This document shows positions 18,069 to 57,413 of a DNA stretch of 64,000 bases, piece by piece. Source of the stretch: Candidatus Doudnabacteria bacterium (GTDB taxonomy: Bacteria; Patescibacteriota; Doudnabacteria; UBA920; O2-02-FULL-48-8); NCBI GenBank assembly GCA_016182875.1, contig JACPFQ010000004.1, positions 99,203 to 163,202 of the forward strand. Direction: 5' to 3'. Position 1 is the stretch's first letter; every line of letters starts with the position of its first letter. The position numbers and the translations under genes are program-made. Under the pieces are notes generated by a model, which saw only the letters and a list, made by a program, of their open reading frames with translations, did not search any database and was not told the origin of the DNA.

Positions 18069-18262
18069 AAGCTTTCTTACTATACCAACTTTGCCTTAGT
18101 TTGTCACGGGTATTAAACAGTAACAAAGTTTCAACCTCTATTCCACATCATATTAACAGTCATGCAAATTTTTGGCTAAAGTTAGCCAAAAATTTAGGAT
18201 TTACATGTTGATAACTTATCTGTTACAATACCGGAGTTAAAATCATTTTTGAAATCAAACTT
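18069..18262. other. Candidate oriC / dnaA promoter region (rpmH-dnaA intergenic)
   Basis: AT-rich; contains a near-DnaA-box TGTTGATAA (1 mismatch to TGTGGATAA) and TATTCCACA; conserved rpmH/dnaA divergent arrangement. Confidence 0.3.
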
Positions 18263-22013: not shown

Positions 22014-22046
22014 TACCCCCTCTAACTCCCCCTTCCAGGGGGAGAA
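22013..22046 (+). terminator. recF terminator hairpin that is also a minimal copy of the palindromic-element terminal repeats (TAACTCCCCC-ttcca-GGGGGAGaaTTA)
   Basis: CCCCC-TTCCA-GGGGG stem-loop followed by aattatttttct; its ends match those of the elements inside uvrB and valS. Confidence 0.55.
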
Positions 22047-22141
22047 TTATTTTTCTAAAAATTAGACAAATCAAAAGAGCGAGGCCGACCCATACGGGGT
22101 CAAACCTCGCCCTCTCGTCCGGTCGAATGACCGGAACGTGT

Positions 22142-23884
22142 CTATCTGTCTTCCTCCTCCCTTTCGTTATCGAGCTCCATGTGAAGGCCTTGTGAGACCC
22201 TCAACATGAATTCGCGGCGCTCGTTCGGCTTGCCGCCGAAGAACTTAAACCTTCTCTCGACCTTCTTGGGTTCGTGGGCCACCACGTGATCCGCGGTCAT
22301 CATATTGATGACCTTCTGTTCCGCCTCAAGCCCGTCGACATGCTGAGCGAGCGCGGTTACCGCACTGCGGGCTTCACCCGTGACCCGCTCGACGGCAGCG
22401 ATGCGGTCCATCATGGACTGCCGCAGCTCGGCACCGTACTTGGTAACGACTTCCGTGGCCTGCGCCCGCGCCGCTGTAGTGACCCGCGCCTCGAGCCCGT
22501 CGAGCCCACTGTACTGGATCCTCAGGGCAGCGAGCTGCTGGCCCTGCGCCTGAACTTGCCGACGGAGCGCGGTGATGTCAGCGCTTGGCTGCGGCTGGGT
22601 GACCTGCTTCTGCACCGCCTCGATGCGCTGCTGCAGTCGGTAACCCATGGCGTTGGTCTGGTTATCCATGACTGTCACGTATTTGTCGGAGACGATTGTT
22701 CGGCCGTCCTGGCAGGTGACACCGACCTTGGTAGCTACCTTCCGAGCGTTGACCGGGTCGATGTTGACCGTGCCCACCACTTGCGTGGGTGAAGCGCTCG
22801 TCACGGTCATGCTGACACCGCGCGTGATATTCACCGCCGTCGGGTTTCCGGTGCAGAGGTTGCTGCCCGACAGGGTCAGCATCTGCGGTACCGGGTGGTC
22901 CACGACGATGGTGTCCGGTGATATCGAGGTGATCTGTCCGGCGGCCTGTGCGAACGCTGCGTTCGCGTAGCCGCCAAACAGCAGCGCCAGGATGATCACG
23001 GGAACCACAGGAGCCGGAGCCGCGGGAACGGCGGGCTGAGCCGAGACTTCCGCCGAGTTCGGTCCCTCGCCAGACCCGTAGTACGCGCTCACGACGTAGA
23101 AGTATTGGGTGCCGTTCGTGAGCCCCGCTGCGTCGGTGTAGGTCGTCGCATTGGCCGTGCCGACGATTGTGTACGGGCCGCCGGCAGTCGTGGCGCGTTT
23201 GACCGTGTAGAACACAGCGCCTGTGATTGCCGCCCAGTTGAGGACGACCTGAGCGTTCCCTGGCGTTGCCGCAAGCCCTGTGGGAGCAGCAGGTCTGTGT
23301 GCTTCCTGAGCGCGCCGACGGACTTCGGCGTCGCGGTCCTCCGGTTGTGCAGGACCGCGCCGCCGTAAGAACCAGACGGCAATGATGAGCACGAGCAGTC
23401 CCACACCAGCCCAGACGAACGGGGCCAAGTTGATGGCCGCTGGCGGACAGCCGGTGGTCAGAACGGGCGTTCCCTGCGGGGTGTCCTTGCACTGGTCGAC
23501 GTTGTCCGCGACCTTGTCGCCGTCCGAGTCAGTGGCGGCCGGCGGCGGTTCCTGCGCCTTGTCTGCCGCCTGCTGCTGTTCTTGCGAACAGCCGTTGCGG
23601 AAGATGGGCACGCCTTGCGGGGTGTTGGCGCACTGGTCGTCGCTGTTCGGGATGCCGTCGCGGTCTGCATCCGCCACCGGGGTTGCCGGTTGCGGAGTTG
23701 GCGTTGGCGCGGGAGCCGCGGGCTGGCCCTGAGTGGCCGGTGGTGCCTGCGGCGCGGGCGCGGGTTGCGGAGTCGGCGGTTGCGCAGTCGCAGCCTCGGG
23801 CTCCTGTGGCACGACCGGAATCTGCGCGAACGCGCTGGCGCTGAGCGCCAGCATTGCGAGCACGAAAACGAACATTCTTATCAT
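22142..23884 (-). CDS. High-GC secreted/membrane surface protein. Order: signal peptide, Pro-rich linker, two TSP3-like Ca-binding repeats, TM helix, FN3-like domain, second signal-peptide-like segment, Cys-containing beta domain, long coiled coil
   Basis: I prefer ATG at 23884 (MIRMFVFVLAMLALSASAFAQ) with SD AGGAGGG 3 nt upstream over the track start at 24106. Repeats DADRDGIPNSDDQC and DSDGDKVADNVDQC. FN3-like segment NAQVVLNWAAITGAVFYTVKR...GTQYFYVVSAYY. Confidence 0.55.
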   Translation of the reverse strand: MIRMFVFVLAMLALSASAFAQIPVVPQEPEAATAQPPTPQPAPAPQAPPATQGQPAAPAPTPTPQPATPVADADRDGIPNSDDQCANTPQGVPIFRNGCSQEQQQAADKAQEPPPAATDSDGDKVADNVDQCKDTPQGTPVLTTGCPPAAINLAPFVWAGVGLLVLIIAVWFLRRRGPAQPEDRDAEVRRRAQEAHRPAAPTGLAATPGNAQVVLNWAAITGAVFYTVKRATTAGGPYTIVGTANATTYTDAAGLTNGTQYFYVVSAYYGSGEGPNSAEVSAQPAVPAAPAPVVPVIILALLFGGYANAAFAQAAGQITSISPDTIVVDHPVPQMLTLSGSNLCTGNPTAVNITRGVSMTVTSASPTQVVGTVNIDPVNARKVATKVGVTCQDGRTIVSDKYVTVMDNQTNAMGYRLQQRIEAVQKQVTQPQPSADITALRRQVQAQGQQLAALRIQYSGLDGLEARVTTAARAQATEVVTKYGAELRQSMMDRIAAVERVTGEARSAVTALAQHVDGLEAEQKVINMMTADHVVAHEPKKVERRFKFFGGKPNERREFMLRVSQGLHMELDNEREEEDR

Positions 23885-24133
23885 CACACCCTCCTGTGAG
23901 ATGTGAAAGTTGGCCTCGCGGCCAGTTGAAACGAAACGCTCTGACGGCGTTTGGCCGCGAGCCAGTGCGTGAACTCTAGTAGCACTGCTTTTATGTCTGA
24001 AATTTATCCTGATGTAAATCAGGATCAGGCACAAAAGTAATCCTACTAAAATGGGGAGGAGCGAGGCAGTCTTGGTAGACCAGCCTCGCCCCACTCCTTC
24101 TTGCATCTCAGCGCTTGCGCGCTGAGTTTCCTC

Positions 24134-25960
24134 CTATCTGTTGTCTTCCTCCGGTCCGCCGTTGGGTGGCGCACCGTTCCGGGTCTCGCACGGGGTGGCC
24201 AGACCGAGCGCCTCGGCGACTGCTTGCGACGCCGTCTTGCGCTGGTTGGGCTGTCCGCGTCTGAGGAACCTGCCGCCAACGCGGTCAGGCTCGTCGTACA
24301 CGACATGCTGCATCGCAATGCAGGTGCCGGTCTCGACGTTGCCCATCCTGCCTTGCAGGTTGTTGACGTACCCGGCCTGGGTTGTCAGGGTCTTCGCGAG
24401 CTCCCCGGCGTAGCTAAGCGTCTGGTCAGCAACGCTGCGCGTCGCCTTGCCTGCCTCTTCGGCTGCGGCAATGCGCGACACCATGCGCTCCTCGAGGGTC
24501 TGGAGGTCGCTGAGGACATCCGCACGCCGCGCGAAGGGAGCCCATGATGCCTGGAGAAGCTCGCCAGCTTTCGCGTGCGTCGGCTGGGCGGAGTAGTCCA
24601 GGTAGCGCTTGTTCCCCTCTTCCCGCCCGTAGACCTGCTGGAACTTCTCCTGCAGGTAGTGTGAGAAACGCGGGTCGCGTCCGAACCGCTCGGCCGTGAT
24701 GTCGAGCACGGTCGCCGATTCCTGGCTGATGATGCGGACGACCGAGTTGCCCGACGCGATGTCGCCTGCGTCGGTGTTCACCACGAACGCCGTGGTCCCC
24801 GGCATGGCAGTCGCGTCTGCCTGGAGCTTGCTGATGATGGTGTTGCCCTTCATCACAATCTCCGTAGTGGTGGCCACACCGGTGCCGGCGTTGATGCCCG
24901 TGACCTTGCCGAGCTTGGCGTTGCGCGGGCAGGCCATGGTGATGGTCACGTCCGCGGCGTTGCCGCCCTGCACCAGGTATCCGTTCTGCACACTGACAGA
25001 ACGGACGGTGCACGTCGGAACTGCAGGGGCCGCGGGAGCGGCGGGCTGACCCTGAGCAGGCACCTGTGCGGCTGCCGGCTGCGGCGCTGCCGGCGGGGCC
25101 GGGGCAGCCGCACCGGGAGCGGCCGGCGCCGTGGTGACGGGTGGGGTCGGCTGCTGGGCGAGGGCGCTGTTGGCGCCGAGCCCGAGCAGGATGGCGATGA
25201 CGATGCTTCTCATGACAGTTCCTCCGAGTTTCCGGTTGATGTTGATGCCGAACCCGATGACGAGTCCGACGAGAATCACGAACCCGACGGCCCCGCCGAT
25301 GACGATGTACCGCAGCTTCTGATCGGTCCGCCGCGTGTCCTGGCGGGCGAGTAGCGCGTTGTTGGACGCCTTGATCGAGTACTGCCGGTCCATCCACGAG
25401 TTGTCCGCCGACGAGGCGATTGCCTTCTCGATTCGTCCGATGAGCGAGGCTTCGACGTCGTTCAGGCGGTGCTCGACGTCAGTAGGCGACGCGTTGTACG
25501 GCGCGACCTTGGCGATGTAGGTTCGGGTCGCTTCGAGAGGCGGTTGCGACGAGTCGGTGACCTTGACCGTGACCGTGTAGTCATCGCCTGGGATTTCTTC
25601 GCCACGCGATGAATACAGGTAGGCCTGACTCTTGCTCGGCAACCAGACATCGAGAATGTCTCCGTTCTTGATCTCGTCGACGATCTCCCACTTGTAGGGC
25701 TCGGTCCCGCCGCGCGCCGCCAGGTTGAACTCCTTGTAGCGGCCGGATTCGAACGCGATGGTCGTGGGTTCGACGATTGTCAACGAACCGGTTGCTGTCG
25801 CGGGCGGCTGCTGGGTCGAACCCGTCGCGGGCGGCGCCTGCTGAGTCGAAGTACCGGGCTGGCGAATCGTCGCGGTCTGCGCGCCGAGCGGCACCAGGTT
25901 CAAGAGGAACCCGAGCAGCAAAATCGCTGCGCAGATGAGGTACTGAGTCAACTTCTTCAT
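24134..25960 (-). CDS. High-GC surface protein, paralogous architecture to 22142..23884. Order: signal peptide, Thr/Pro-rich linker, Ig-like domain, TM helix, second signal peptide (with internal RBS + ATG at 25213), Pro-rich linker, Cys-containing beta domain, coiled coil
   Basis: SD AAGGGAGAG before ATG at 25960. GGTEPYKWEIV...DDYTVTVKVTD resembles bacterial putative-Ig domains. Internal GGAGGA-6nt-ATG (M250, MRSIVIAILLGLGANSALAQQ) is in frame. Confidence 0.55.
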   Translation of the reverse strand: MKKLTQYLICAAILLLGFLLNLVPLGAQTATIRQPGTSTQQAPPATGSTQQPPATATGSLTIVEPTTIAFESGRYKEFNLAARGGTEPYKWEIVDEIKNGDILDVWLPSKSQAYLYSSRGEEIPGDDYTVTVKVTDSSQPPLEATRTYIAKVAPYNASPTDVEHRLNDVEASLIGRIEKAIASSADNSWMDRQYSIKASNNALLARQDTRRTDQKLRYIVIGGAVGFVILVGLVIGFGININRKLGGTVMRSIVIAILLGLGANSALAQQPTPPVTTAPAAPGAAAPAPPAAPQPAAAQVPAQGQPAAPAAPAVPTCTVRSVSVQNGYLVQGGNAADVTITMACPRNAKLGKVTGINAGTGVATTTEIVMKGNTIISKLQADATAMPGTTAFVVNTDAGDIASGNSVVRIISQESATVLDITAERFGRDPRFSHYLQEKFQQVYGREEGNKRYLDYSAQPTHAKAGELLQASWAPFARRADVLSDLQTLEERMVSRIAAAEEAGKATRSVADQTLSYAGELAKTLTTQAGYVNNLQGRMGNVETGTCIAMQHVVYDEPDRVGGRFLRRGQPNQRKTASQAVAEALGLATPCETRNGAPPNGGPEEDNR

Positions 25961-25989
25961 GACTTGCTCTCCCTTTTGCTAACGAGCGG

Positions 25990-26226
25990 TTATGGTTCAA
26001 CGACAGTCACGTTGACTGCCATCAGTACTGCGTCGAGGTCGAACGTGGCCTGCTTGCCGCGGATTCGTCCGCGCGGCACGTGGTCGTCCCGAATCTCGAA
26101 CTTGTCTCCGACGTGGTCGGGGCCCGTGAGGACTCTCACCTTCCAGACCATCCTGCTAGGGTTGGTTGGGGAAGGATTGAAGCCCACGACATAGCCGGTA
26201 TACGCCGGTGACCCTCTGATCGTCAA
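25990..26226 (-). CDS. Small hypothetical protein (78 aa, TTG start) leading the high-GC minus-strand operon
   Basis: SD-like AGAGAGG upstream of TTG; same high G+C; 30 nt upstream of the next gene. Confidence 0.35.
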   Translation of the reverse strand: MTIRGSPAYTGYVVGFNPSPTNPSRMVWKVRVLTGPDHVGDKFEIRDDHVPRGRIRGKQATFDLDAVLMAVNVTVVEP

Positions 26227-26551
26227 AACGCACCTCTCTTTCTGAACAAATGCTGGTTGCGCCGCCGATACTTCCTAATTTTTAAGGCTTAAGAAACACG
26301 GGCGGCGCAACCAAAACTGAAACAAAATACACTATGGGATTTTAAAGAACGAACCGAATATGATAGCAAATTTTGGCACTTTTGTCAACCCCGACGCGCA
26401 AGCGGTCGGGGCTCCGACCGTAGCGTCGGAGTGCTCATGGTATTTTAGGCTAATTTTAGCCAAAAGCTGGCGCTAGGCTTGATTTTTTGCTTTAATACTA
26501 GTACAATTTAGCGTTCGTAAACCGCACTTTTAATTTTCCCAGGAGGGAGAA

Positions 26552-28138
26552 ATGATGTTTGCACAGATTTTTGTCGTCGTGGCGATTCTGGCTTCGGCCG
26601 GCGTCGCTTCCGCGCAAACGGTCTTTACTCCTTCCCTAAGAATTCCTGGGATTGGAGTAGAGCGAAAGAACATCAGCGGCGCGGTCCTGGACGATCGCAT
26701 CCGCAAGATAATTCTTTCACGGCAGTTCTGGCTCTTGCGGCAGGAATGCGCCAAGGATGCACCCAAGCGGCTGTTCGACAACTATTGGCGAATCATTGAG
26801 CCGGTGGCGGCGATTGAGCCCAGGCTTGATCCGTACATCATCGGAGCGCTGATTACTCTCGAAAGCTGCGTCGTTGAGAAAGCCGACAACGGGTTTGGTC
26901 CAGTTGGACTTTGCCAGATCGATATCGCGTCGGGCAAGGACCTCGGCATGAAGGTTCATGTTGAGCGGCGGTTCCGGTTGGTGCCGAGAAAAAATAGCCG
27001 CGGACAGATCCTCAAGGACAGGCGTGGAAGAGCGCTCGCTCGGCGCGTGTACTACTGGTATACCTATCCTGACGACGAGCGATGGGATCCAGCGAAGTGC
27101 ATCATGGGCATGCGCAATCGTCTGCTGCGCAGCTACAACGCCTACGGTTCGATGGATGCAACGCTCGCCGAGTACCACATGGGGCCAACGCGCATGAATC
27201 GTCTACTCTCGCTCTATACGGGTCAAAACGTGGTCAGGAATCCGACCAAAAAGGGCGAGGTCGCGGCCAAAGAAGTCATCGCGAAGCGGCAATTGCGCTA
27301 CGCGAAGATCTTCTTCGACAACACTCCGAGCTGGCGGCGCAGCGTCTGGCTTTACCTCAAGCGACTGCCTGACGACTCGGAAACGTACTACTTCAAAGAA
27401 GCCATGTGGGAAGGACTGCTTCGGTTTTACCATGACCCGCGGTACGGCGGCGGACCCGCGGCGTACGAACGACTGCAAGCCCGATACAGCGGGGCCTCTA
27501 GCCCAATGTGGTCGTTCTTCACGGAGGAGGAGCGTCAGCAGTATATGATCATGACCGTTGAGGCACTGGCCAAGGCGTACGATCCGCCCAGGCCTGGCGA
27601 GGGCGCGCGGCTCGTCCCGTTGCCTCAAGACCCGGCGTTCTTTGGGTTCAGGCCGAGACTTGAGGGGTCATCGCCGATTGGGGCGAAAGCGCTGAAACCG
27701 CAAGACAGACCATACTACATCGGGTCTGAAGCTTCAACGCTCGGCGCGCTCGTCTACATTTCTTACGAGCTTAGGCGGCTGACGGGGGCTGGGTTTCGGA
27801 TTTTGGAGACCAACTCGCTCGTCCGAGACAACGATTATCAGTTGCGTTTAAGAACTGATAACGTGAATGCGCGCACCAGCCTGCCCACGCACGTGATGGC
27901 CAAGGCCTTCGATCTTCCCTACAACTGGATGAGTCCGCAACTGCGGGAGAACTTGGAGTTCCTCCTGCAGGACCTGGCGTATGACGGCAAGCTGACATTC
28001 AGCCCCGAGTCAGGGAGCCAGCATACCGACCATGTCGTTCCTCATCCCGACGCGGAAGAGTTCTTCGACAAGGTCTACGCTGGAGCCGAACGTCAGCTGG
28101 CGGCGCGAAATGCCGCTCGTCGTGCAAACACCCAATAA
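26552..28138 (+). CDS. Secreted putative peptidoglycan hydrolase: signal peptide + lytic-transglycosylase (SLT)-like domain + C-terminal domain with an H-x6-D ... HxxH metal-site-like pattern (peptidase-like)
   Basis: Signal peptide MMFAQIFVVVAILASAGVASAQ. ITLESCVV...GFGPVGLCQI matches the SLT ES...GLMQ pattern. C-terminal SLPTHVMAKAFD and HTDHVVPH. SD AGGAGGGAG before the ATG. Confidence 0.5.
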   Translation: MMFAQIFVVVAILASAGVASAQTVFTPSLRIPGIGVERKNISGAVLDDRIRKIILSRQFWLLRQECAKDAPKRLFDNYWRIIEPVAAIEPRLDPYIIGALITLESCVVEKADNGFGPVGLCQIDIASGKDLGMKVHVERRFRLVPRKNSRGQILKDRRGRALARRVYYWYTYPDDERWDPAKCIMGMRNRLLRSYNAYGSMDATLAEYHMGPTRMNRLLSLYTGQNVVRNPTKKGEVAAKEVIAKRQLRYAKIFFDNTPSWRRSVWLYLKRLPDDSETYYFKEAMWEGLLRFYHDPRYGGGPAAYERLQARYSGASSPMWSFFTEEERQQYMIMTVEALAKAYDPPRPGEGARLVPLPQDPAFFGFRPRLEGSSPIGAKALKPQDRPYYIGSEASTLGALVYISYELRRLTGAGFRILETNSLVRDNDYQLRLRTDNVNARTSLPTHVMAKAFDLPYNWMSPQLRENLEFLLQDLAYDGKLTFSPESGSQHTDHVVPHPDAEEFFDKVYAGAERQLAARNAARRANTQ

Positions 28139-28162
28139 AAAAACCGCCCCGGAGGAGGCGGT
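28133..28162 (-). terminator. Rho-independent terminator for the minus-strand membrane-protein gene (hairpin CCGCC-ccggagga-GGCGG followed by a T-run on the minus strand)
   Basis: aaaaaaaaccgccccggaggaggcgg on the plus strand. Confidence 0.55.
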
Positions 28163-28215
28163 GAGTGCGGGGCCCGGGAATTGAAACGTTTAATGTTTCT
28201 GCCCGGGTCCTGTTT

Positions 28216-28791
28216 TTATTCCCTCAGCCCGGGTGCTTTGGCTTCGGGCGGGAGCTTGTCGTACAAATCAGAAATCAATTTGGAGACCGCGGTCGGGTTT
28301 GGGATGCGCGAGAACACGAACCGCTCGACTTCGCCGGCGGTTTGGATGTGGACATTGCCGTAATTTAAAAACGTCGGGAAAAAACCCTTAACCTCGGCCG
28401 TGACATCCTGCATGCGCGAGAGATAAACTTCGGAAATTTTGTGATGAATCAGGGAGTGCTGGTCAATGTCGACCACGCGCTCGTTGGTGACAATCTGGAC
28501 GTTGAGATAGTAAATCACCCAAAGCATGAGCAGGCCCAGGATCAGAAACAGCAGGTAGATGCTTTTGAGCAAAGCGTAAATTTCTTGGTAGGGAGAGACA
28601 AAGATAAAGGATGCGTAGTGGGGAAGGTATTGGTCAGCCAAAACCAGAATGGCCACGAACAGTAGCCAAAGTGCGAATCTGAGGGCAAATACAAACCAGT
28701 GCTGGCGGATGACGAGGTAAACTTCCTCGTTTTCCTGCTGGCCGGGGAACAGATTTTGCTTGAAGTGTTGTTTGAGGGTTGGCCAGTACAT
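28216..28791 (-). CDS. Hypothetical membrane protein (two TM helices plus a cytoplasmic domain)
   Basis: I prefer the start at M14 (MYWPTLKQ), where the repeated leader cassette ends exactly at the ATG; the track start is 28830. Confidence 0.5.
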   Translation of the reverse strand: MYWPTLKQHFKQNLFPGQQENEEVYLVIRQHWFVFALRFALWLLFVAILVLADQYLPHYASFIFVSPYQEIYALLKSIYLLFLILGLLMLWVIYYLNVQIVTNERVVDIDQHSLIHHKISEVYLSRMQDVTAEVKGFFPTFLNYGNVHIQTAGEVERFVFSRIPNPTAVSKLISDLYDKLPPEAKAPGLRE

Positions 28792-28796
28792 GATAG

Positions 28797-28868
28797 AATT
28801 TTGAATGATTAATTTTGAATTTTGATTCAAATTCGAATTTCAGAAATTAGAATATTCATTCGAAATTC
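28797..28868 (-). repeat. Copy 1 of a ~75-90-bp AT-rich promoter/leader cassette ending at the ATG of the downstream gene
   Basis: aattttgaatgattaattttgaattttgattcaaattcgaatttcagaaattagaatattcattcgaaatt; near-identical to copies 2 and 3. Confidence 0.6.
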
Positions 28869-28903
28869 CCGCCGGAGGCGAGGCTCGCCCAAGGCGGCAA
28901 AAC

Positions 28904-29128
28904 TCAAAATTTAATGCTGTTCAAATCGGTTTGGGCGGCGGCGAATAAGCTTGCGGCAATGATGATGTAAAGCAAAGACACGCTCGCGGAAACCAGTTTG
29001 GAGCGTCCGAAGCGGTTGAGGGCGTAGAGCGCCAGAAAGCTATAAAGCGCAAACCCGGCCATGAGGACATAGAAAACCAGCGCGATTATTGTGTGAATGA
29101 GATTTGTTGGTTCGTAGACAGTGAGCAT
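28904..29128 (-). CDS. Small hypothetical membrane protein (74 aa, 2 TM)
   Basis: The ATG coincides with the end of cassette copy 2; two hydrophobic helices. Confidence 0.5.
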   Translation of the reverse strand: MLTVYEPTNLIHTIIALVFYVLMAGFALYSFLALYALNRFGRSKLVSASVSLLYIIIAASLFAAAQTDLNSIKF

Positions 29129-29219
29129 GAATTTTGAATGATTAATTTTGAATTTTGATTCAAATTCGAATTTCAGAAATTAGAATATTCATTCGAAATT
29201 CTAAAATCGAAATTCAAAA
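29129..29219 (-). repeat. Copy 2 of the AT-rich promoter/leader cassette (between the ruvB stop and the small membrane-protein gene)
   Basis: gaattttgaatgattaattttgaattttgattcaaattcgaatttcagaaattagaatattcattcgaaattctaaaatcgaaatt... Confidence 0.6.
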
Positions 29220-30257
29220 TTATAATAAAGTCTCTCCTTTGGTTTCTTTTGCCGTAACTTTCAAATGCTCATAGGCCGCTGGCGTGGCTACGCGTCCTTT
29301 GGGTGTGCGGGCGATGAAGCCGAGCCTTAAGAGGTAAGGCTCGTAAACATCTTCCAAGGTTTCGGCTTCTTCCGAGGTCGCGGCGGCCAAGGATGTAATC
29401 CCCACCGGCCCGCCGCCGAATTTTTCGATAATGGTCAGAAGCATGCGCCGGTCGTTGGCGTCCAGTCCCAGGCTGTCGACCTCCAGCATGTCCAAAGCTT
29501 CCTGCGCCACCGAATCGATGATTCGCCCGGCGGCTTTGACCTGGGCGTAGTCGCGCACGCGCTTGAGCAGTCGATTGGCGATTCTGGGAGTTCTCCTCGC
29601 CCTGCGGGCGATTTCTTTCCGCCCGCCTTCGTTTATCTTGATTTTCAAAATATTGGCCGCCCGCTCAATGATTTTTTCGATTTCATCTTCTTCGTAATAG
29701 TCAAGCCGCAGAGTGGAGCCAAACCGGTCGCGAAGCGGAGAAGAAATAAGTCCGATCCGGGTCGTGGCGCCGATCAATGTAAATTTGGGAAGGTCAAGAC
29801 GCAGCGCTTTTGCTCCGGCGCCTTTTCCCAGGACAATATCCAAGCAGTAGTCCTCCATAGCCGGGTAAAGAATTTCTTCGACGACCTTGTTTAGGCGGTG
29901 GACCTCGTCGATGAACAAAACGTCATTGGGTTCAAGGCTGGTTAGGAGAGAGGCGAGATCCCCGGTTTTTTCTATGGCCGGGCCAGAAGTGATTTTGATG
30001 GCCACCCCGATTTCGCGGGCGATGATGTGGGCGAGCGTGGTCTTGCCCAGTCCCGGCGGCCCGTAGAGCAGAATATGCTCCAGCGTTTCCTTTCTTTTTT
30101 TTGCGGCATCAATGAAGATTTTGAGGTTGTCCTTGATTTTGGTTTGCCCGACGTACTCATTCAAGCTTTGCGGCCTCAGCGTTGCCTCAAAAAACCCTTC
30201 ATCTTTGGTTTGTTCTGGGTTGATGATGTCTATTTCTTCAGTGTTGGTGTTAATCAT
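29220..30257 (-). CDS. ruvB: Holliday junction branch-migration helicase RuvB
   Basis: AAA+ Walker [19 protein letters not shown]; RuvB C-terminal winged helix. Confidence 0.95.
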
Positions 30258-30275
30258 GGGTTAATTATAACAGCA

Positions 30276-30365
30276 TGAATTTTGAATTACTAATTTTGAA
30301 TTTTGATTCAAATTCGAATTTCAGAAATTAGAATATTCATTCGAAATTCTAAAATCGAAATTATA
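30276..30365 (-). repeat. Copy 3 of the cassette (upstream of ruvB), here followed by a 3-codon mini-ORF (ATG CTG TTA TAA) before the ruvB ATG
   Basis: gaattttgaattactaattttgaattttgattcaaattcgaatttcagaaattagaatattcattcgaaattctaaaatcgaaatt. Confidence 0.55.
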
Positions 30366-31791
30366 AATTCTCAAGAAACTTGATTCCATGATACACTCCC
30401 CAGCCGGAAGCACCCGCCGGCATATGCGGCCTGCTTTTTACGGTCCACGCCGTGCCCGCGATGTCGAAGTGAATCCAGGGAGTCTTGTCCACGAAGCTTA
30501 ACAGAAACAGGCTGGCCGTGATTGCCCCGCCCAGGCCCTTGTCGCCGGTGTTTTTGAGGTCCGCAATTTGGCTTTTAAGCTGGTCCTGGTATTCGTTCGG
30601 CAGGGGCATGAGCCACAATTTCTCTCCGGTCGCTTTCGCAGCTTTTGTCAGCTGCTGGTTATATTTTTCGCTGTTTCCGAAAGCCCCGGTCAGCTCGTCG
30701 CCCAAAGCGATGATGATGGCGCCGGTTAAGGTCGCGTAGTCGAGGATAAGCTTTGGCTGATAATGTTTCTTGGCGTAAGTAATGGCATCGGCCAAAATCA
30801 GCCGTCCTTCGGCGTCGGTGTTGATGATCTCTACGGTTTTGCCTGACATGGAGGTTAGGATATCGCCCGGCTTGGTCGCTCTTCCCGAAAGCAAATTTTC
30901 CGCGGACGGGATTAATCCCACCAGAGAAGTTTTAAGCTTGAGTTGGGCGGCAGCCTCGATTATTCCAAGGACCGTGGCGCCTCCGCACATATCGTACTTC
31001 ATTTCCTCCATTCGCTCCGCCGGCTTGATGGATATGCCGCCGCTGTCAAAAGTCAGCCCCTTGCCAATGAGCACAATCGGGTTTTGGTTCGAGGATTTTT
31101 TAGGAAGATACTCAATCACGATGAATTTAGGCGGTTCGTCCGAGCCGCGCGACACTCCAAGCAGCAGGCCCATGTTCTCTTTCTTGATATCTTTGGCGTC
31201 CAAGACTTTGAGTTTGAGCCGGTATTTGTCCGCAATCAGTTTGGCATGCTGCGCCAGATGAGCAGGCGTTGCGATGTTCGCCGGATGGTTGGCCAAATCG
31301 CGCGCTTTGTTTGCAGCCGATGCAACCATTGAGCCTCGCGCTATCGCTTTTTCCATGGCCTTGGTAATTCGGGGAACGGCCAAATAGATGTTTTCGAGAT
31401 TTATTTTTTCCTTTTCCTGTTTGTAGTAGTTAAATGAGTAGGAAGCAAAAACCGCGGCAAAGGAAATAATCTCAACGGCATCCGGGCTTTGAAGCTCCCG
31501 CAGGTCCCTAAGCAGGATTTGCAGCGAGGATGTCTTAAATTTTTTGGAAGCAGAAACAGCGGTCTGAATGGCCGTTCTTAAGCTTGCTGGGTTGAAGTTT
31601 TTATTTTCTCCCAAGCCCAAAAGCATCATTCGTCCCAGATTCTCTGAGTAAACCACGTGGGTTTCATTGGCCTTGCCTGTAAAATCTTGCAAGCCTAAAA
31701 CTTTAAACTCCTCGGCCGGCTGTTTTTTGGCAAACAAGGGAATGATTGTCAGGTCAGATTTATTGAGTTGTTTGGTCAGGCGGAGTTTCAT
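30361..31791 (-). CDS. pepA: Leucyl aminopeptidase (peptidase M17)
   Basis: NTDAEGRL signature and the conserved M17 catalytic region. Confidence 0.9.
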   Translation of the reverse strand: MKLRLTKQLNKSDLTIIPLFAKKQPAEEFKVLGLQDFTGKANETHVVYSENLGRMMLLGLGENKNFNPASLRTAIQTAVSASKKFKTSSLQILLRDLRELQSPDAVEIISFAAVFASYSFNYYKQEKEKINLENIYLAVPRITKAMEKAIARGSMVASAANKARDLANHPANIATPAHLAQHAKLIADKYRLKLKVLDAKDIKKENMGLLLGVSRGSDEPPKFIVIEYLPKKSSNQNPIVLIGKGLTFDSGGISIKPAERMEEMKYDMCGGATVLGIIEAAAQLKLKTSLVGLIPSAENLLSGRATKPGDILTSMSGKTVEIINTDAEGRLILADAITYAKKHYQPKLILDYATLTGAIIIALGDELTGAFGNSEKYNQQLTKAAKATGEKLWLMPLPNEYQDQLKSQIADLKNTGDKGLGGAITASLFLLSFVDKTPWIHFDIAGTAWTVKSRPHMPAGASGWGVYHGIKFLENL

Positions 31792-33320: not shown

Positions 33321-33398
33321 AAGCTATTTTAGCTCCGACGCTCGACCCTGTCGAGGTCGGAGTCCCGCACCGAAGCGTCGGGACAGTTTGACGCGACC
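33321..33398. repeat. GC-rich nested hairpins (CTCCGAC...GTCGGAG family) in the tsaE / DHH divergent intergenic region
   Basis: CTCCGAC-GCTCGAC-cct-GTCGAG-GTCGGAG followed by GTCCCG-caccgaagcgt-CGGGAC. Confidence 0.5.
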
Positions 33399-42406: not shown

Positions 42407-44539
42407 TCACTTAAACTTATGCCTCTTCATTCTTGTCTTCTCTCGAATTGCCGAAATTTGGTCGCGCAAGGCTGCGGCTTTTTCGAAATCCAAATTCCTG
42501 GCCGCCAAATCCATCTGATCGCGCAGTTCTTCCACCAGGTATGCGATTTCTTGCCTGCTCATTTTCGTTAAATCAATCCCTGATTCCTGATTCTTGATTC
42601 CTGATTCTATCTTCATGCCTGCCAGCCGAGATTCCTTAACAGCTTTCTGGATGCTCGCCGGAATGATGCCGTGCTTCTTGTTATATTGTTCCTGGATTTT
42701 GCGGCGGCGGGCGACCTCATCCATGGCCCGCTTCATCGAGCCGGTAACCTGGTCTGCGTACATGATGACGCGGCCATCGATGTGCCGGGCCGCGCGGCCC
42801 ATGGTTTGGATGAGCGAAGTGTCCGAGCGCAGGAATCCTTCCTTATCCGCGTCCAAAATCGCGACCAATGACACTTCCGGCAAGTCCAATCCTTCCCGCA
42901 GTAAATTTATCCCCACGACCACGTCATAAACTCCCAAGCGTAAGTCTCTCAAAATTTCCAGTCTCTGCAGGGTTTCAATGTCAGCATGGAGGTAATGAAC
43001 CTTGACCCCGTATTCAGCCAAATAATTGGAAAGTTCTTCAGCCATGTTTTTGGTCAGAGTCGTAACCAAAACCCGCTGGCTATTTTTTACCCGATTTTGG
43101 ATTTCCTCCATAAGGTCGTCTATTTGATTTTTGGTCGGCCGAATTTCGATTTCCGGATCCAAGAGGCCGGTGGGCCGGATTAACTGCTCGGCGACCTGCT
43201 TGGAAGCTTTTATCTCGCGCTCTTTGGCGGGCGTGGCAGAGACAAAAATCGTTTGATCGGTTTTTTTTTCGAATTCTTCGAATTTCAGCGGCCGGTTGTC
43301 TAGGGCGCTCGGCAATCTGAAGCCGTAGTCGACCAGAGTTTGTTTGCGGGCTGAATCGCCTTCATACATGCCGTTTATTTGCGGCAGGGTGATGTGGGAT
43401 TCGTCGATGAACAGCAAGAAGTCATCCGGAAAATAATCGAGCAGGGTCGAGGGCGGCTCTCCGGGCTTGCGGAAGTCCAAGTGGCGGGAATAATTTTCGA
43501 TGCCGTTAACAAACCCGGTTTCAATCATCATTTCGATGTCAAAGTTGGTGCGCTGTTCGATTCTTTGGGCTTCTAGGAGTTTGTCTTGACTTTTGAAAAA
43601 TTTAACCTGCTCAGCAAGCTCTGCCCGAATGTTTTCGATGGCGGCAAGCATTTTTTCCCTCGGGGTCACGAAATGCTTGGCTGGGAAGATGGTGAGTTGG
43701 CTTAGAGACGGATCGTTTTTAGACCGTAACTCCCCCGCTTTGCCTAATGCCTTTGCTCCCCCTCTTATCCTAAGAGGGGGTTTGTTTTCAGTCTTATCCC
43801 CCCTTGGAACAAGGGGGGATAAAGGGGGGTTAGAAGCAGAGGCTAAATCCTCCCCGGTCAGCGGATCATGTAAACTAATTTTCTCAATCTCGTCCCCATA
43901 AAAATTAATGCGATAGACTTTGTCTTCAGATGCAGGGATTATTTCTACCACGTCTCCACGTACCCTGTAAGTTCCTCTTCGAAGTTCGACGTCATTGCGC
44001 ATGAACTGCAGGTCAGTCAGCCGGCGCAAAAACTTGTCGCGCTTGATTTTGGCCCCGACTTTGATGGGGACGGAAAGCTCCAGGTAGTCGCCTGGGTTGC
44101 CCAGGCCGTAGATGCAGGAGACCGACGCGACAATCAAGACGTCTTGGCGACTAAGCAAACTTTGCGTGGCGGCGTTGCGAAGTTTGTCGATTTCTTCGTT
44201 GATTTCCGTTTCTTTCTCGATATAGGTGTCGCTTCGCGGAATGTACGCTTCCGGCTGGTAGTAATCGTAGTAGGAAACGAAATAATGCACGGCGTTGTCC
44301 GGGAAAAAATCCTGGAATTCCGAAGCCAGCTGGGCGGCCAGAGTTTTGTTATGCGAGATTACGAGGGTCGGTTTTTGGACAAGTGCTACGATGTTGGCCA
44401 TGGTGAAAGTCTTGCCGCTGCCCGTGACCCCGAGCAAAGTTTGGTAGCGGTAATTTTTTTTGAGGCCCGCAGCTAGCTTTTCGATCGCCTGCGGCTGGTC
44501 GCCCGAAGGTTTGAATGGTGACTGAAGCTGGAATTTCAT
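42407..44539 (-). CDS. uvrB: Excinuclease ABC subunit B, carrying an in-frame ~40-aa insertion encoded by a palindromic element
   Basis: UvrB helicase motifs throughout; the inserted segment [46 protein letters not shown] sits between the conserved DPLTGE and [13 protein letters not shown]. Confidence 0.93.
43727..43832. mobile_element. MITE-like palindromic element inserted in frame inside uvrB
   Basis: Terminal repeats TAACTCCCCCGCTTTG ... GGGGGGTTA; internal perfect hairpins CCCCCTCTTA-tcc-TAAGAGGGGG and ATCCCCCCTTG-gaa-CAAGGGGGGAT. Confidence 0.55.
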
Positions 44540-45307: not shown

Positions 45308-45410
45308 TGTTAATTCCTCCCCTAGAATAGGGGAGGTTAGGAGGGGTAGAGTACGAGCTTGAACCGTACCTCCCCTAGCCCCTCCTATTCTAGGAGGGGA
45401 ATTAAAATAT
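45308..45410. repeat. ~100-bp palindromic element (terminal inverted repeats TTAATTCCTCCCCTAGAATAGG / CCTATTCTAGGAGGGGAATTAA) filling the ruvA-femAB intergenic region
   Basis: Near-perfect 22-bp terminal inverted repeats plus internal sub-palindromes (GTACG...CGTAC). Confidence 0.5.
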
Positions 45411-57261: not shown

Positions 57262-57267
57262 GTGCTC

Positions 57268-57396
57268 GGGCTAGGTCGCAAATCAGAGCCGACGGGTCCT
57301 GCCGCGATTTACCCCACCAGTGCTCACTGTCGTTGCGCGCTGTCGGGGTCCCCAAATCGCGTCACCCGTCGGCAGCCAGTCTTTGCGACTAGCCCT
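57268..57396. repeat. GC-rich nested-palindrome element (~130 bp) between rpoC and the next gene
   Basis: GGGCTAGGTCGCAAA ... TTTGCGACTAGCCC encloses GCCGACGGGT ... ACCCGTCGGC, which encloses GCGATTT ... AAATCGC; G+C well above the flanking genes. Confidence 0.5.
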
Positions 57397-57413
57397 CGCT
57401 GAGGAAAAATAAT

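Follow-up and report, generated by a model that had tools for sequence, protein, structure and literature searches.

A 325-bp spacer at 26227-26551 of the window (the whole 64-kb stretch of DNA analysed here) separates two divergently oriented genes, running from the TTG start of a 78-aa open reading frame (26226, minus strand) to the ATG of a gene for an SLT-like protein (26552, plus strand). Its G+C content is 44.6%. The spacer lies within a 6.2-kb segment (22014-28215) between recF and a bPH_2 gene, and rnpA, dnaA, dnaN and recF are encoded directly to the left, so the locus adjoins the replication origin. The leftward operon of the segment encodes a 78-aa, a 608-aa and a 654-aa fn3 protein, and the rightward gene encodes the 528-aa SLT-like protein, listed at NCBI under a Candidatus Doudnabacteria MAG as a hypothetical protein. 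The four genes have GC3 values of 0.70-0.83, as against ~0.5-0.65 in nearly all backbone genes of the window. Their products are predicted to be secreted or membrane proteins, with signal-peptide-like N-termini, Pro/Ala-rich linkers, an fn3 domain and an SLT domain, and no DNA-binding protein is recognisable among them.

Gene order was compared with that of 80 metagenomic loci anchored on DnaA (53-86% identity), none of which encodes any of the four island proteins. The bPH_2 gene adjoins recF in 12 of these loci and the island is missing from all 12; the gap between the two genes is 53-112 nt in three (L144, L146 and L149), while unrelated DNA of 0.4-4.5 kb fills it in the remaining nine. The absence of the island from relatives, together with the varied gaps, indicates that 22014-28215 is a lineage-specific island in a variable junction. 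A preliminary description of this DNA had placed the spacer within a GC-rich island, which is borne out by the GC3 of the flanking genes and by relatives in which recF stands directly beside bPH_2. In 5.8 billion proteins, the SLT-like protein has just two further homologue clusters, and the contigs of these clusters, L011 and L008/L009, provide the only two homologous spacers available. Length variants of the 654-aa gene between contigs were considered and rejected as gene-calling differences, since L001 and L002 align with the window at 99.97% identity and without gaps. A tRNA/tmRNA scan of the window returned two tRNAs only, at 469-634. Rfam likewise yielded just two tRNAs across the window and no match at gathering score in the spacer.

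Divergent promoters and three palindromes

Two divergent sigma-70-type promoters are predicted from the spacer sequence and backed by conservation, in line with the promoter search that the preliminary description had proposed. The leftward promoter (26360-26388, minus strand) consists of TTGACA (26388-26383), a 17-nt spacer and an extended -10, TG-n-TATCAT, ending at 26360, and in a consensus scan it is strong, matching 11 of the 12 consensus positions. Its counterparts are TTGACA-17-TAACAT in L011 and TTGACT-17-TAATAT in L008/L009. The predicted rightward promoter (TTGATT-17-TACAAT, 26479-26507, plus strand) is followed by a 5'UTR of ~40 nt with a GGAGGGAG ribosome-binding site, and promoter and 5'UTR are nearly identical in L011 (TTGACT-17-TAGAAT). 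The divergent layout and both promoters are retained in both homologous spacers.

The three palindromes first noted in the spacer are all present where they were reported. They are three different things, with no single control system. We therefore describe the spacer as the back-to-back promoter region of a horizontally acquired island in a genome of Candidatus Doudnabacteria (CPR/Patescibacteria), with three palindromes of three separate origins, a reading to which we assign a probability of roughly 70%. In the homologous spacers, a comparison suggested in the preliminary description, palindrome 3, the GGCTAA dyad, is conserved in part, and neither the tandem hairpins nor palindrome 1 is conserved.

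Palindrome 1 is a unique long hairpin (26254-26313, minus strand) with a stem of 13 + 11 bp and a 10-nt loop. Its perfect arms, GGTTGCGCCGCC (26255-26266) and GGCGGCGCAACC (26301-26312), are 12 bp long and enclose 34 nt; the initial account had the loop right and the arms too short, at 10 bp. Extended to 25 nt (26254-26278 and 26289-26313), the arms show 80% complementarity. The hairpin sits between the predicted transcription start (~26353) and the ribosome-binding site (~26240) of the 78-aa reading frame, and the predicted 142-nt leftward 5'UTR folds with a minimum free energy of -44.1 kcal/mol (z = -3.8). A weak U-rich tract, GCAUUUGUUC, comes after it on the transcribed strand. No further copy occurs in the window or in 1.9 Mb of CPR loci, and palindrome 1 has no conserved equivalent in L011 or L008, the former folding differently at this place and not significantly. 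We take palindrome 1 to be a lineage-specific structure of the predicted leftward 5'UTR; very tentatively, it could be a stem that stabilises or attenuates the mRNA.

A dyad common to the island and the dnaA promoter

The third palindrome is an operator-like dyad at 26444-26465, TTTAGGCTAA-TT-TTAGCCAAAA, with its core GGCTAATTTTAGCC at 26448-26461 and half-sites TTTTTGGCTAA-NN-TTAGCCAAAAA. Its centre lies ~60 nt before the predicted start of rightward transcription, and it is partly retained at the same position in L011 (AACTAATATAAGCC) and L008 (GGCTAATATTAGGC). The pattern GGCTAAnnTTAGCC has two matches in the window, where 0.12 are expected, and 2 of 100 shuffles reach that number. The second match is a 30-nt perfect palindrome, AAATTTTTGGCTAAAGTTAGCCAAAAATTT, at 18166-18195, 21 nt upstream of the -35 of dnaA.

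The dnaA promoter itself is very conserved, and at least nine related loci carry a dyad of the form TTTTTGGCTWA-NN-TWAGCCAAAAA at the same position upstream of it. Some relatives show symmetric substitutions such as GGCTTATATAAGCC, and the dyad also precedes dnaA in the more distant loci L162 and L193/L194. Over 1.08 Mb there are 55 occurrences, as against 8-15 in shuffled sequence (~four-fold). The distance from dyad to -35 varies (13, 17 or 21 nt), with no helical phasing. To our knowledge, the dyad fits none of the common bacterial operator consensus sequences.

We regard the GGCTAA dyad as a credible operator-like site, found lineage-wide; conservation suggests that GGCTAA-NN-TTAGCC is the putative binding site of a dimeric host DNA-binding protein. 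The preliminary description proposed operators for a regulator acquired together with the island. The operator-like character stands; joint acquisition of the regulator does not, since the dyad occurs at the dnaA promoter of relatives that lack the island, and the protein that binds it would be encoded by the host, not co-acquired. Its presence upstream of dnaA throughout the lineage suggests that the rightward gene of the island has been wired into a host circuit. If so, the dyad shows a foreign island plugged into dnaA-linked control, and it offers a handle on replication-linked regulation in organisms that are not culturable alone.

A two-hairpin repeat scattered through the Patescibacteria

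The second palindrome comprises two adjacent hairpins at 26389-26431, CCCCGAC-N9-GTCGGGG (26389-26411) and CTCCGAC-N6-GTCGGAG (26412-26431). The minus strand of the element reads CTCCGAC-GCTACG-GTCGGAG followed by CCCCGAC-CGCTTGCGC-GTCGGGG and then directly by TTGACA, so that it abuts the -35 of the leftward promoter. The CTCCGAC hairpin had been reported to recur at 33336-33365. It does recur, and as part of a second copy of the whole two-hairpin unit, at 33333-33383 (plus strand) in the divergent spacer between tsaE and a type-IV-pilus operon, where a promoter, TTGACG-17-TATATT, begins 4 nt downstream. A covariance model built from 30 copies in other genomes scores 57.7 bits (E = 1e-12) for the copy in the island spacer and 41.1 bits for that at 33333-33383. 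With E values of up to 10 allowed in Rfam, F6 scores highest over the hairpins, at 14.9 bits (gathering score, 46). Neither hairpin has a T-run after it on either strand.

The 43-nt element is missing from the spacers of L011 and L008/L009, which keep the promoters, and the copy at 33333-33383 is missing from the syntenic spacer of L121. At the island spacer the comparison yields a filled and an empty site: AGCA, element, TTGACA in the window and AGCA joined to TTGACA in L011, with no duplication. By this empty-site comparison, the element landed exactly between the leftward -35 and the DNA upstream of it, leaving the promoter intact.

How widespread is the element? One genome per GTDB species was scanned for the exact pattern CTCCGAC-N(4-20)-GTCGGAG-YCCCG, which makes no demand on closure of the second hairpin, and at least 120 loci were recovered. 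Among the matches listed, those of low GC are mostly from Patescibacteria, including Doudna-, Sacchari-, Berkel-, Wolfe-, Nomura-, Taylor-, Kaiser-, Yanofsky-, Kuenen-, Uhr-, Nealson- and Brennerbacteria as well as Paceibacteria, and a few element-bearing contigs are MAGs of Omnitrophota or Planctomycetes. The second hairpin (GTCGGGR) is closed in 87 of the 97 low-GC matches listed and in only 2 of the 32 high-GC ones, which marks the latter as chance matches. The same holds for 2.9 million viral contigs, where the pattern has four matches, all of high GC and without the second hairpin, giving no sign of carriage by phage. More than 85 full copies occur across the Patescibacteria. The suggestion of a REP-like repeat family, and the proposed search for further copies of the hairpin, were thus well founded as regards the tandem hairpins, and the family is broader than proposed, extending over many classes. 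We found no published description of the element in the literature on REPs, MITEs and palindromic elements in Patescibacteria, CPR or Saccharibacteria, or under its stem sequences. It is apparently an undescribed repeat of ~40 nt, scattered through the Patescibacteria.

Copies are 36-81 nt long, with a mode of 40-45 nt. The outermost pair of hairpin 2 covaries (C-G 45, T-A 31, T.G 2, C.A 1, as raw counts that ignore kinship), and copies found by the covariance model alone carry compensated stems: AGCCGAC/GTCGGCT, TCCCGAC/GTCGGGA and TTCCGAC/GTCGGAA. The sole invariant part of the stems is the CGAC/GTCG core, a constancy that the search pattern partly imposes. The unit can be written NNNCGAC-G..loop..G-GTCGNNN, followed by its own reverse complement: hairpin 2 is the reverse complement of hairpin 1, including a conserved G.G / C.C mismatch beside the stem, which makes the element an inverted doublet of one unit. 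In copies of the Taylorbacteria type, the loops too are reverse-complementary (GCTTCG and CGAAGC). Although ViennaRNA prefers a nested fold of outer and inner arms when the element is folded as DNA, the Y..R covariation supports two side-by-side hairpins, and the nested fold was discarded as a candidate for the conserved structure. Loop length varies from 4 to more than 40 nt among copies, a range that excludes a duplex operator of fixed spacing and points to a folded single strand.

Probable spread of the element and its insertion into genes

Several patterns suggest that the element moves. One Taylorbacteria MAG contains at least 13 copies, among them nine identical 40-mers, amid a mosaic of ATACGAAT motifs, and copies are nested within the loops of other copies at five loci (L020, L054, L056, L072 and L081), which suggests a single-stranded target. 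Many relatives have few copies or none. Across 1.02 Mb of related origin regions, an unbiased sample, the covariance model finds a single copy, as against two in this 64 kb. The window copy and L048 have in common the CGCTTGCGC loop and a TTGA flank.

The element also enters genes. Among 89 examined copies, 41 lie inside open reading frames of 100 aa or more that continue for 60 nt or more on each side of the copy; both orientations occur, and the length of 30 of these 41 is a multiple of 3. With a cruder call of reading frames, lengths divisible by 3 are found in 32 of 44 intragenic copies, as against 10 of 38 intergenic ones. In UvrB, an 18-aa insert present in a Saccharibacteria MAG and a Paceibacterota MAG corresponds exactly to the element, and a 14-aa insert (TPTSEVGAPTASVG) in a PilB-like ATPase of Kaiserbacteria is likewise the element; the homologues of both proteins in the window lack the insert. 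Because the element is nearly self-complementary, the peptides it encodes are alike in either orientation (xPTxxxVGxPTxxxVG-like). Among the intergenic copies, many are found between convergent genes or 5-30 nt past a stop codon.

The flank profiles have a weak C-A-R preference 5' of the element and a weak T-T-G-A preference 3' of it, and the flanks of the copies reveal no clear target-site duplication and no conserved target motif. The uvrB genes of L071 and L105 have a possible, decayed duplication of GAGCAG. The idea of TTGA as a strict target, or as a -35 carried by the element, was dropped, the flank preferences being weak. Around the 13 Taylorbacteria copies, the best 25 of 74 Pfam families in 64 open reading frames are housekeeping families, and none of these 25 is a transposase or other mobilising enzyme.

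From these sequence comparisons we read the tandem hairpins as non-autonomous mobile DNA, similar to REPINs and Rickettsia palindromic elements (RPEs), that inserted beside a -35, and as neither an operator of the island nor a terminator. By analogy with REP/REPIN and IS200/IS605 elements, the element most likely spreads as folded single-stranded DNA. As for its effect in the spacer, we consider it most likely a passenger that may, at the very most, modulate the leftward promoter, whose upstream region it would have replaced with cruciform-prone DNA. A wider proposal, which we hold only tentatively and rate as less probable than not, is that the two-hairpin unit represents a Patescibacteria-wide and hitherto undescribed class of ultra-small mobile DNA. 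A conserved enzyme would move it as folded single strands, and it would repeatedly remodel essential proteins in-frame and land beside promoters. The CGAC/GTCG core is unusually constant over very deep lineages for a selfish REP, which counts against mobility; a conserved mobilising enzyme, if real, would account for it.

Selection by the host would also account for the constant core across classes. The hairpins would then be a signal: one possibility is a structure read by a conserved protein of Patescibacteria, such as a factor of the nucleoid, of replication, of uptake or of RNA processing; another is a hairpin in RNA by which transcripts are protected or terminated. The invariant core and the compensated stems in many classes fit this explanation, as do the intergenic copies just past stop codons or between convergent genes, which recall mRNA-stabilising REPs, and the housekeeping character of the best 25 of 74 Pfam families nearby, with no transposase. 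However, the spread is extremely patchy, with one copy in 1.02 Mb of related loci as against bursts of identical copies in a single genome, and about half of the copies lie inside reading frames in either orientation. Each of the two window copies precedes a promoter in a divergent spacer and lacks a U-tract, the spacer copy is absent from orthologous spacers, and two copies per 64 kb is far below the density of known uptake sequences. A host signal is thus, in our view, unlikely.

More doubtful still is an origin of the copies through repeated local processes, such as template switching, palindrome amplification or gene conversion, and not through enzyme-mediated transposition. Such processes could generate the hairpins nested in loops and the mosaic flanks of ATACGAAT motifs in Taylorbacteria, and they agree with the lack of a target-site duplication at 26389-26431 and with the failure to find a transposase among those best 25 of 74 families. 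Yet they would hardly place identical 40-mers at unlinked loci or identical loops in distant genomes (the CGCTTGCGC loop with TTGA, in the window and L048), and insertions in unrelated genes are in-frame and independent. Nor would de novo origin recreate the same 14 stem bases across classes.

The preliminary description had offered the palindromes jointly as operators for a regulator borne by the island, or as bidirectional terminators or insulators between its operons, and although all three lie between or beside the two promoters and dyad symmetry is typical of operators, we consider this very improbable: the island encodes no recognisable DNA-binding protein, loops of 4 to more than 40 nt are incompatible with a fixed-spacing duplex operator, both homologous spacers have the promoters without the element, which also occurs outside the island, in distant lineages and within coding genes, the GGCTAA dyad stands at dnaA promoters of relatives without the island, and no U-tract follows either hairpin of an element that lies upstream of promoters in divergent spacers.

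The genomes of CPR/Patescibacteria are tiny and gene-dense and are considered poor in mobile DNA. If the wider proposal is right, the CPR would have in this element their first REP/RPE-type system, with a sequence common to class-level lineages. A short palindromic element present in many Patescibacteria classes would add a marker of genome and protein evolution in this radiation, and a driver of it. The family would also point to an enzyme that recognises hairpins. For annotation, the consequence is that hairpins of this kind should not be called operators or terminators.

Comparison with known systems

The three palindromes invite comparison with several established kinds of regulatory site and repeat. 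Like dyad operators upstream of dnaA, the GGCTAA dyad is a perfect or near-perfect dyad of 14-24 bp at a conserved position upstream of the -35; it differs from them in that its spacing to the -35 changes in 4-nt steps, and it is not a DnaA box. Intrinsic terminators differ from the tandem hairpins in having a U-tract, which the element lacks, and each window copy precedes a promoter in a divergent spacer.

Among mobile repeats, the element resembles PATEs and MITEs derived from IS200/IS605 in being non-autonomous and hairpin-based, and it resembles IS200/IS605 in leaving no target duplication at the one clean pair of filled and empty sites (AGCA joined to TTGACA when empty). In contrast to PATEs and MITEs, it is much shorter, its terminal inverted repeats are not distinct from its hairpins, it has no conserved target tetra- or pentanucleotide, and no TnpA is among the best 25 of 74 Pfam families around the 13 Taylorbacteria copies.

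The palindromic elements of Rickettsia enter unrelated housekeeping genes without loss of frame, and the gene products thereby gain a short peptide (PMC10969869). The element described here is similarly a palindromic repeat in a host-dependent lineage with reduced genomes, and it too is found in-frame in unrelated genes (18 aa in UvrB, 14 aa in the PilB-like ATPase). The two differ in size and range, RPEs being ~100-150 bp long and restricted to a genus, whereas the element is ~40 nt long (36-81 nt) and found across the superphylum; the comparison is one of architecture, and similarity in sequence would not be expected.

The closest parallels are with REPs, REPINs and BIMEs, which are mobilised by RAYTs (TnpA-REP transposases of the Y1 HUH kind), each normally encoded by a single-copy gene with REPs on its flanks. 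Like these, the element is a short, imperfect palindrome that can occur in many copies per genome. A REPIN is an inverted doublet of REPs (PMC3116915), and the element is likewise an inverted doublet able to fold in single-stranded DNA or RNA. Near-identical bursts, mosaic-embedded copies in one genome and frequent placement just after genes are further points of likeness. The differences are as clear. Recognition of REPs involves a RAYT and a GTAG (PMC6006769), but the 5' guide tetranucleotide, GTAG or GT[AG]G, is absent from the flanks of the element, and no RAYT is among the best 25 of 74 Pfam families in the 64 reading frames around the 13 Taylorbacteria copies. Separately, a literature survey of HUH enzymes made no mention of Patescibacteria lineages. 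With 41 of 89 copies inside reading frames, about half of the family is intragenic, so the element is not 'extragenic' in the sense of a REP. Finally, and again in contrast to REPs, the core of the element is common to many classes of a superphylum and not confined to one genus.

Variants and possible wider distribution of the two-hairpin element

Composite copies of the ~40-nt two-hairpin palindromic element occur in five of the loci from other genomes (L056, 5714-5794; L072, 2735-2814; also L020, L054 and L081). Here the pair AGCCGAC..GTCGGCT and CTCCGA..TCGGAG sits between the ..CCCGA and the C.. of an outer hairpin, and a perfect hairpin is regained once the inserted pair is taken out. Such composites represent nested insertions, all at a single preferred position, or else a cloverleaf-like variant of the element. 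Full two-hairpin copies were also found in L022, L027, L036, L038 and L106, on contigs binned into Omnitrophota, Planctomycetes and ‘Gammaproteobacteria’ metagenome-assembled genomes, reflecting either spread beyond Patescibacteria or mis-binned CPR contigs.

Within the window, the second element copy (33333-33383) overlaps a promoter-like sequence for tsaE, TCGACA-17-TAAAAT (33326-33354, minus strand). Its -35 falls within the enlarged loop of the element and its -10 lies 5 nt ahead of the ATG, so the tsaE mRNA, given this predicted promoter, would be leaderless and partly element-driven. Two lone hairpins look like a single element unit: CATCCCGA-tgtaacg-TCGGGATG (409-431), ~40 nt upstream of tRNA-Cys, and CTCCGAC-gtg-GTCGGGG (26106-26126), within the 78-aa ORF of the island. 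Both score weakly against the element covariance model (12-15 bits) and so could be decayed singlets or chance matches.

Other palindromic and repeated sequences

The window uvrB (minus strand) carries an in-frame insertion of ~44 aa (43700-43830) that other UvrBs are without. The insertion consists of a pair of C-rich hairpins, one TATCCCCCCTTG-ttc-CAAGGGGGGATA and the other CCCCCTCTTA-gga-TAAGAGGGGG. Hairpins of a similar CCCC..GGGG type are found between genes nearby (45316-45336, 45379-45399 and 22026-22044), which suggests that this Doudnabacteria genome has a second family of palindromic insertions.

An AT-rich repeat of 75-98 nt is present in three copies that are 76-100% identical (28791-28888, 29124-29221 and 30272-30369), and includes two hairpins, one TTTGAAT..ATTCAAA and the other TTCGAAT..ATTCGAA. 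Copies one and two begin exactly at the ATG of successive minus-strand genes, namely the bPH_2 gene and an ORF of 74 aa; the ruvB ATG lies ~15 nt downstream of the third copy. The repeat looks like a repeated promoter/5′UTR cassette or a second repeat family. A 150-nt spacer (57262-57413) separates rpoC from a Gmad2-domain gene. It is GC-rich (61%), is predicted to fold into a single imperfect hairpin that is very long (-71.9 kcal/mol, z -5.6), and has no Rfam match.

Conservation and variability near the origin

The dnaA promoter TTTACATGTTGATAACTTATCTGTTAnAAT (18200-18240) recurs at the origin-region loci of relatives (L136-L157), where it is near-invariant down to ~60% DnaA identity and far more conserved than the DNA around it. 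The origin-adjacent junction between recF and the bPH_2 gene (22014-22141 / 28139-28215) is a variable hotspot, as seen in the window and in seven loci of relatives (L137, L140, L143, L147, L150, L156 and L187). Some relatives have only 53-112 nt at this junction and are effectively empty, and others hold differing DNA of 0.4-4.5 kb, whereas the window carries the 6.2-kb high-GC3 island.
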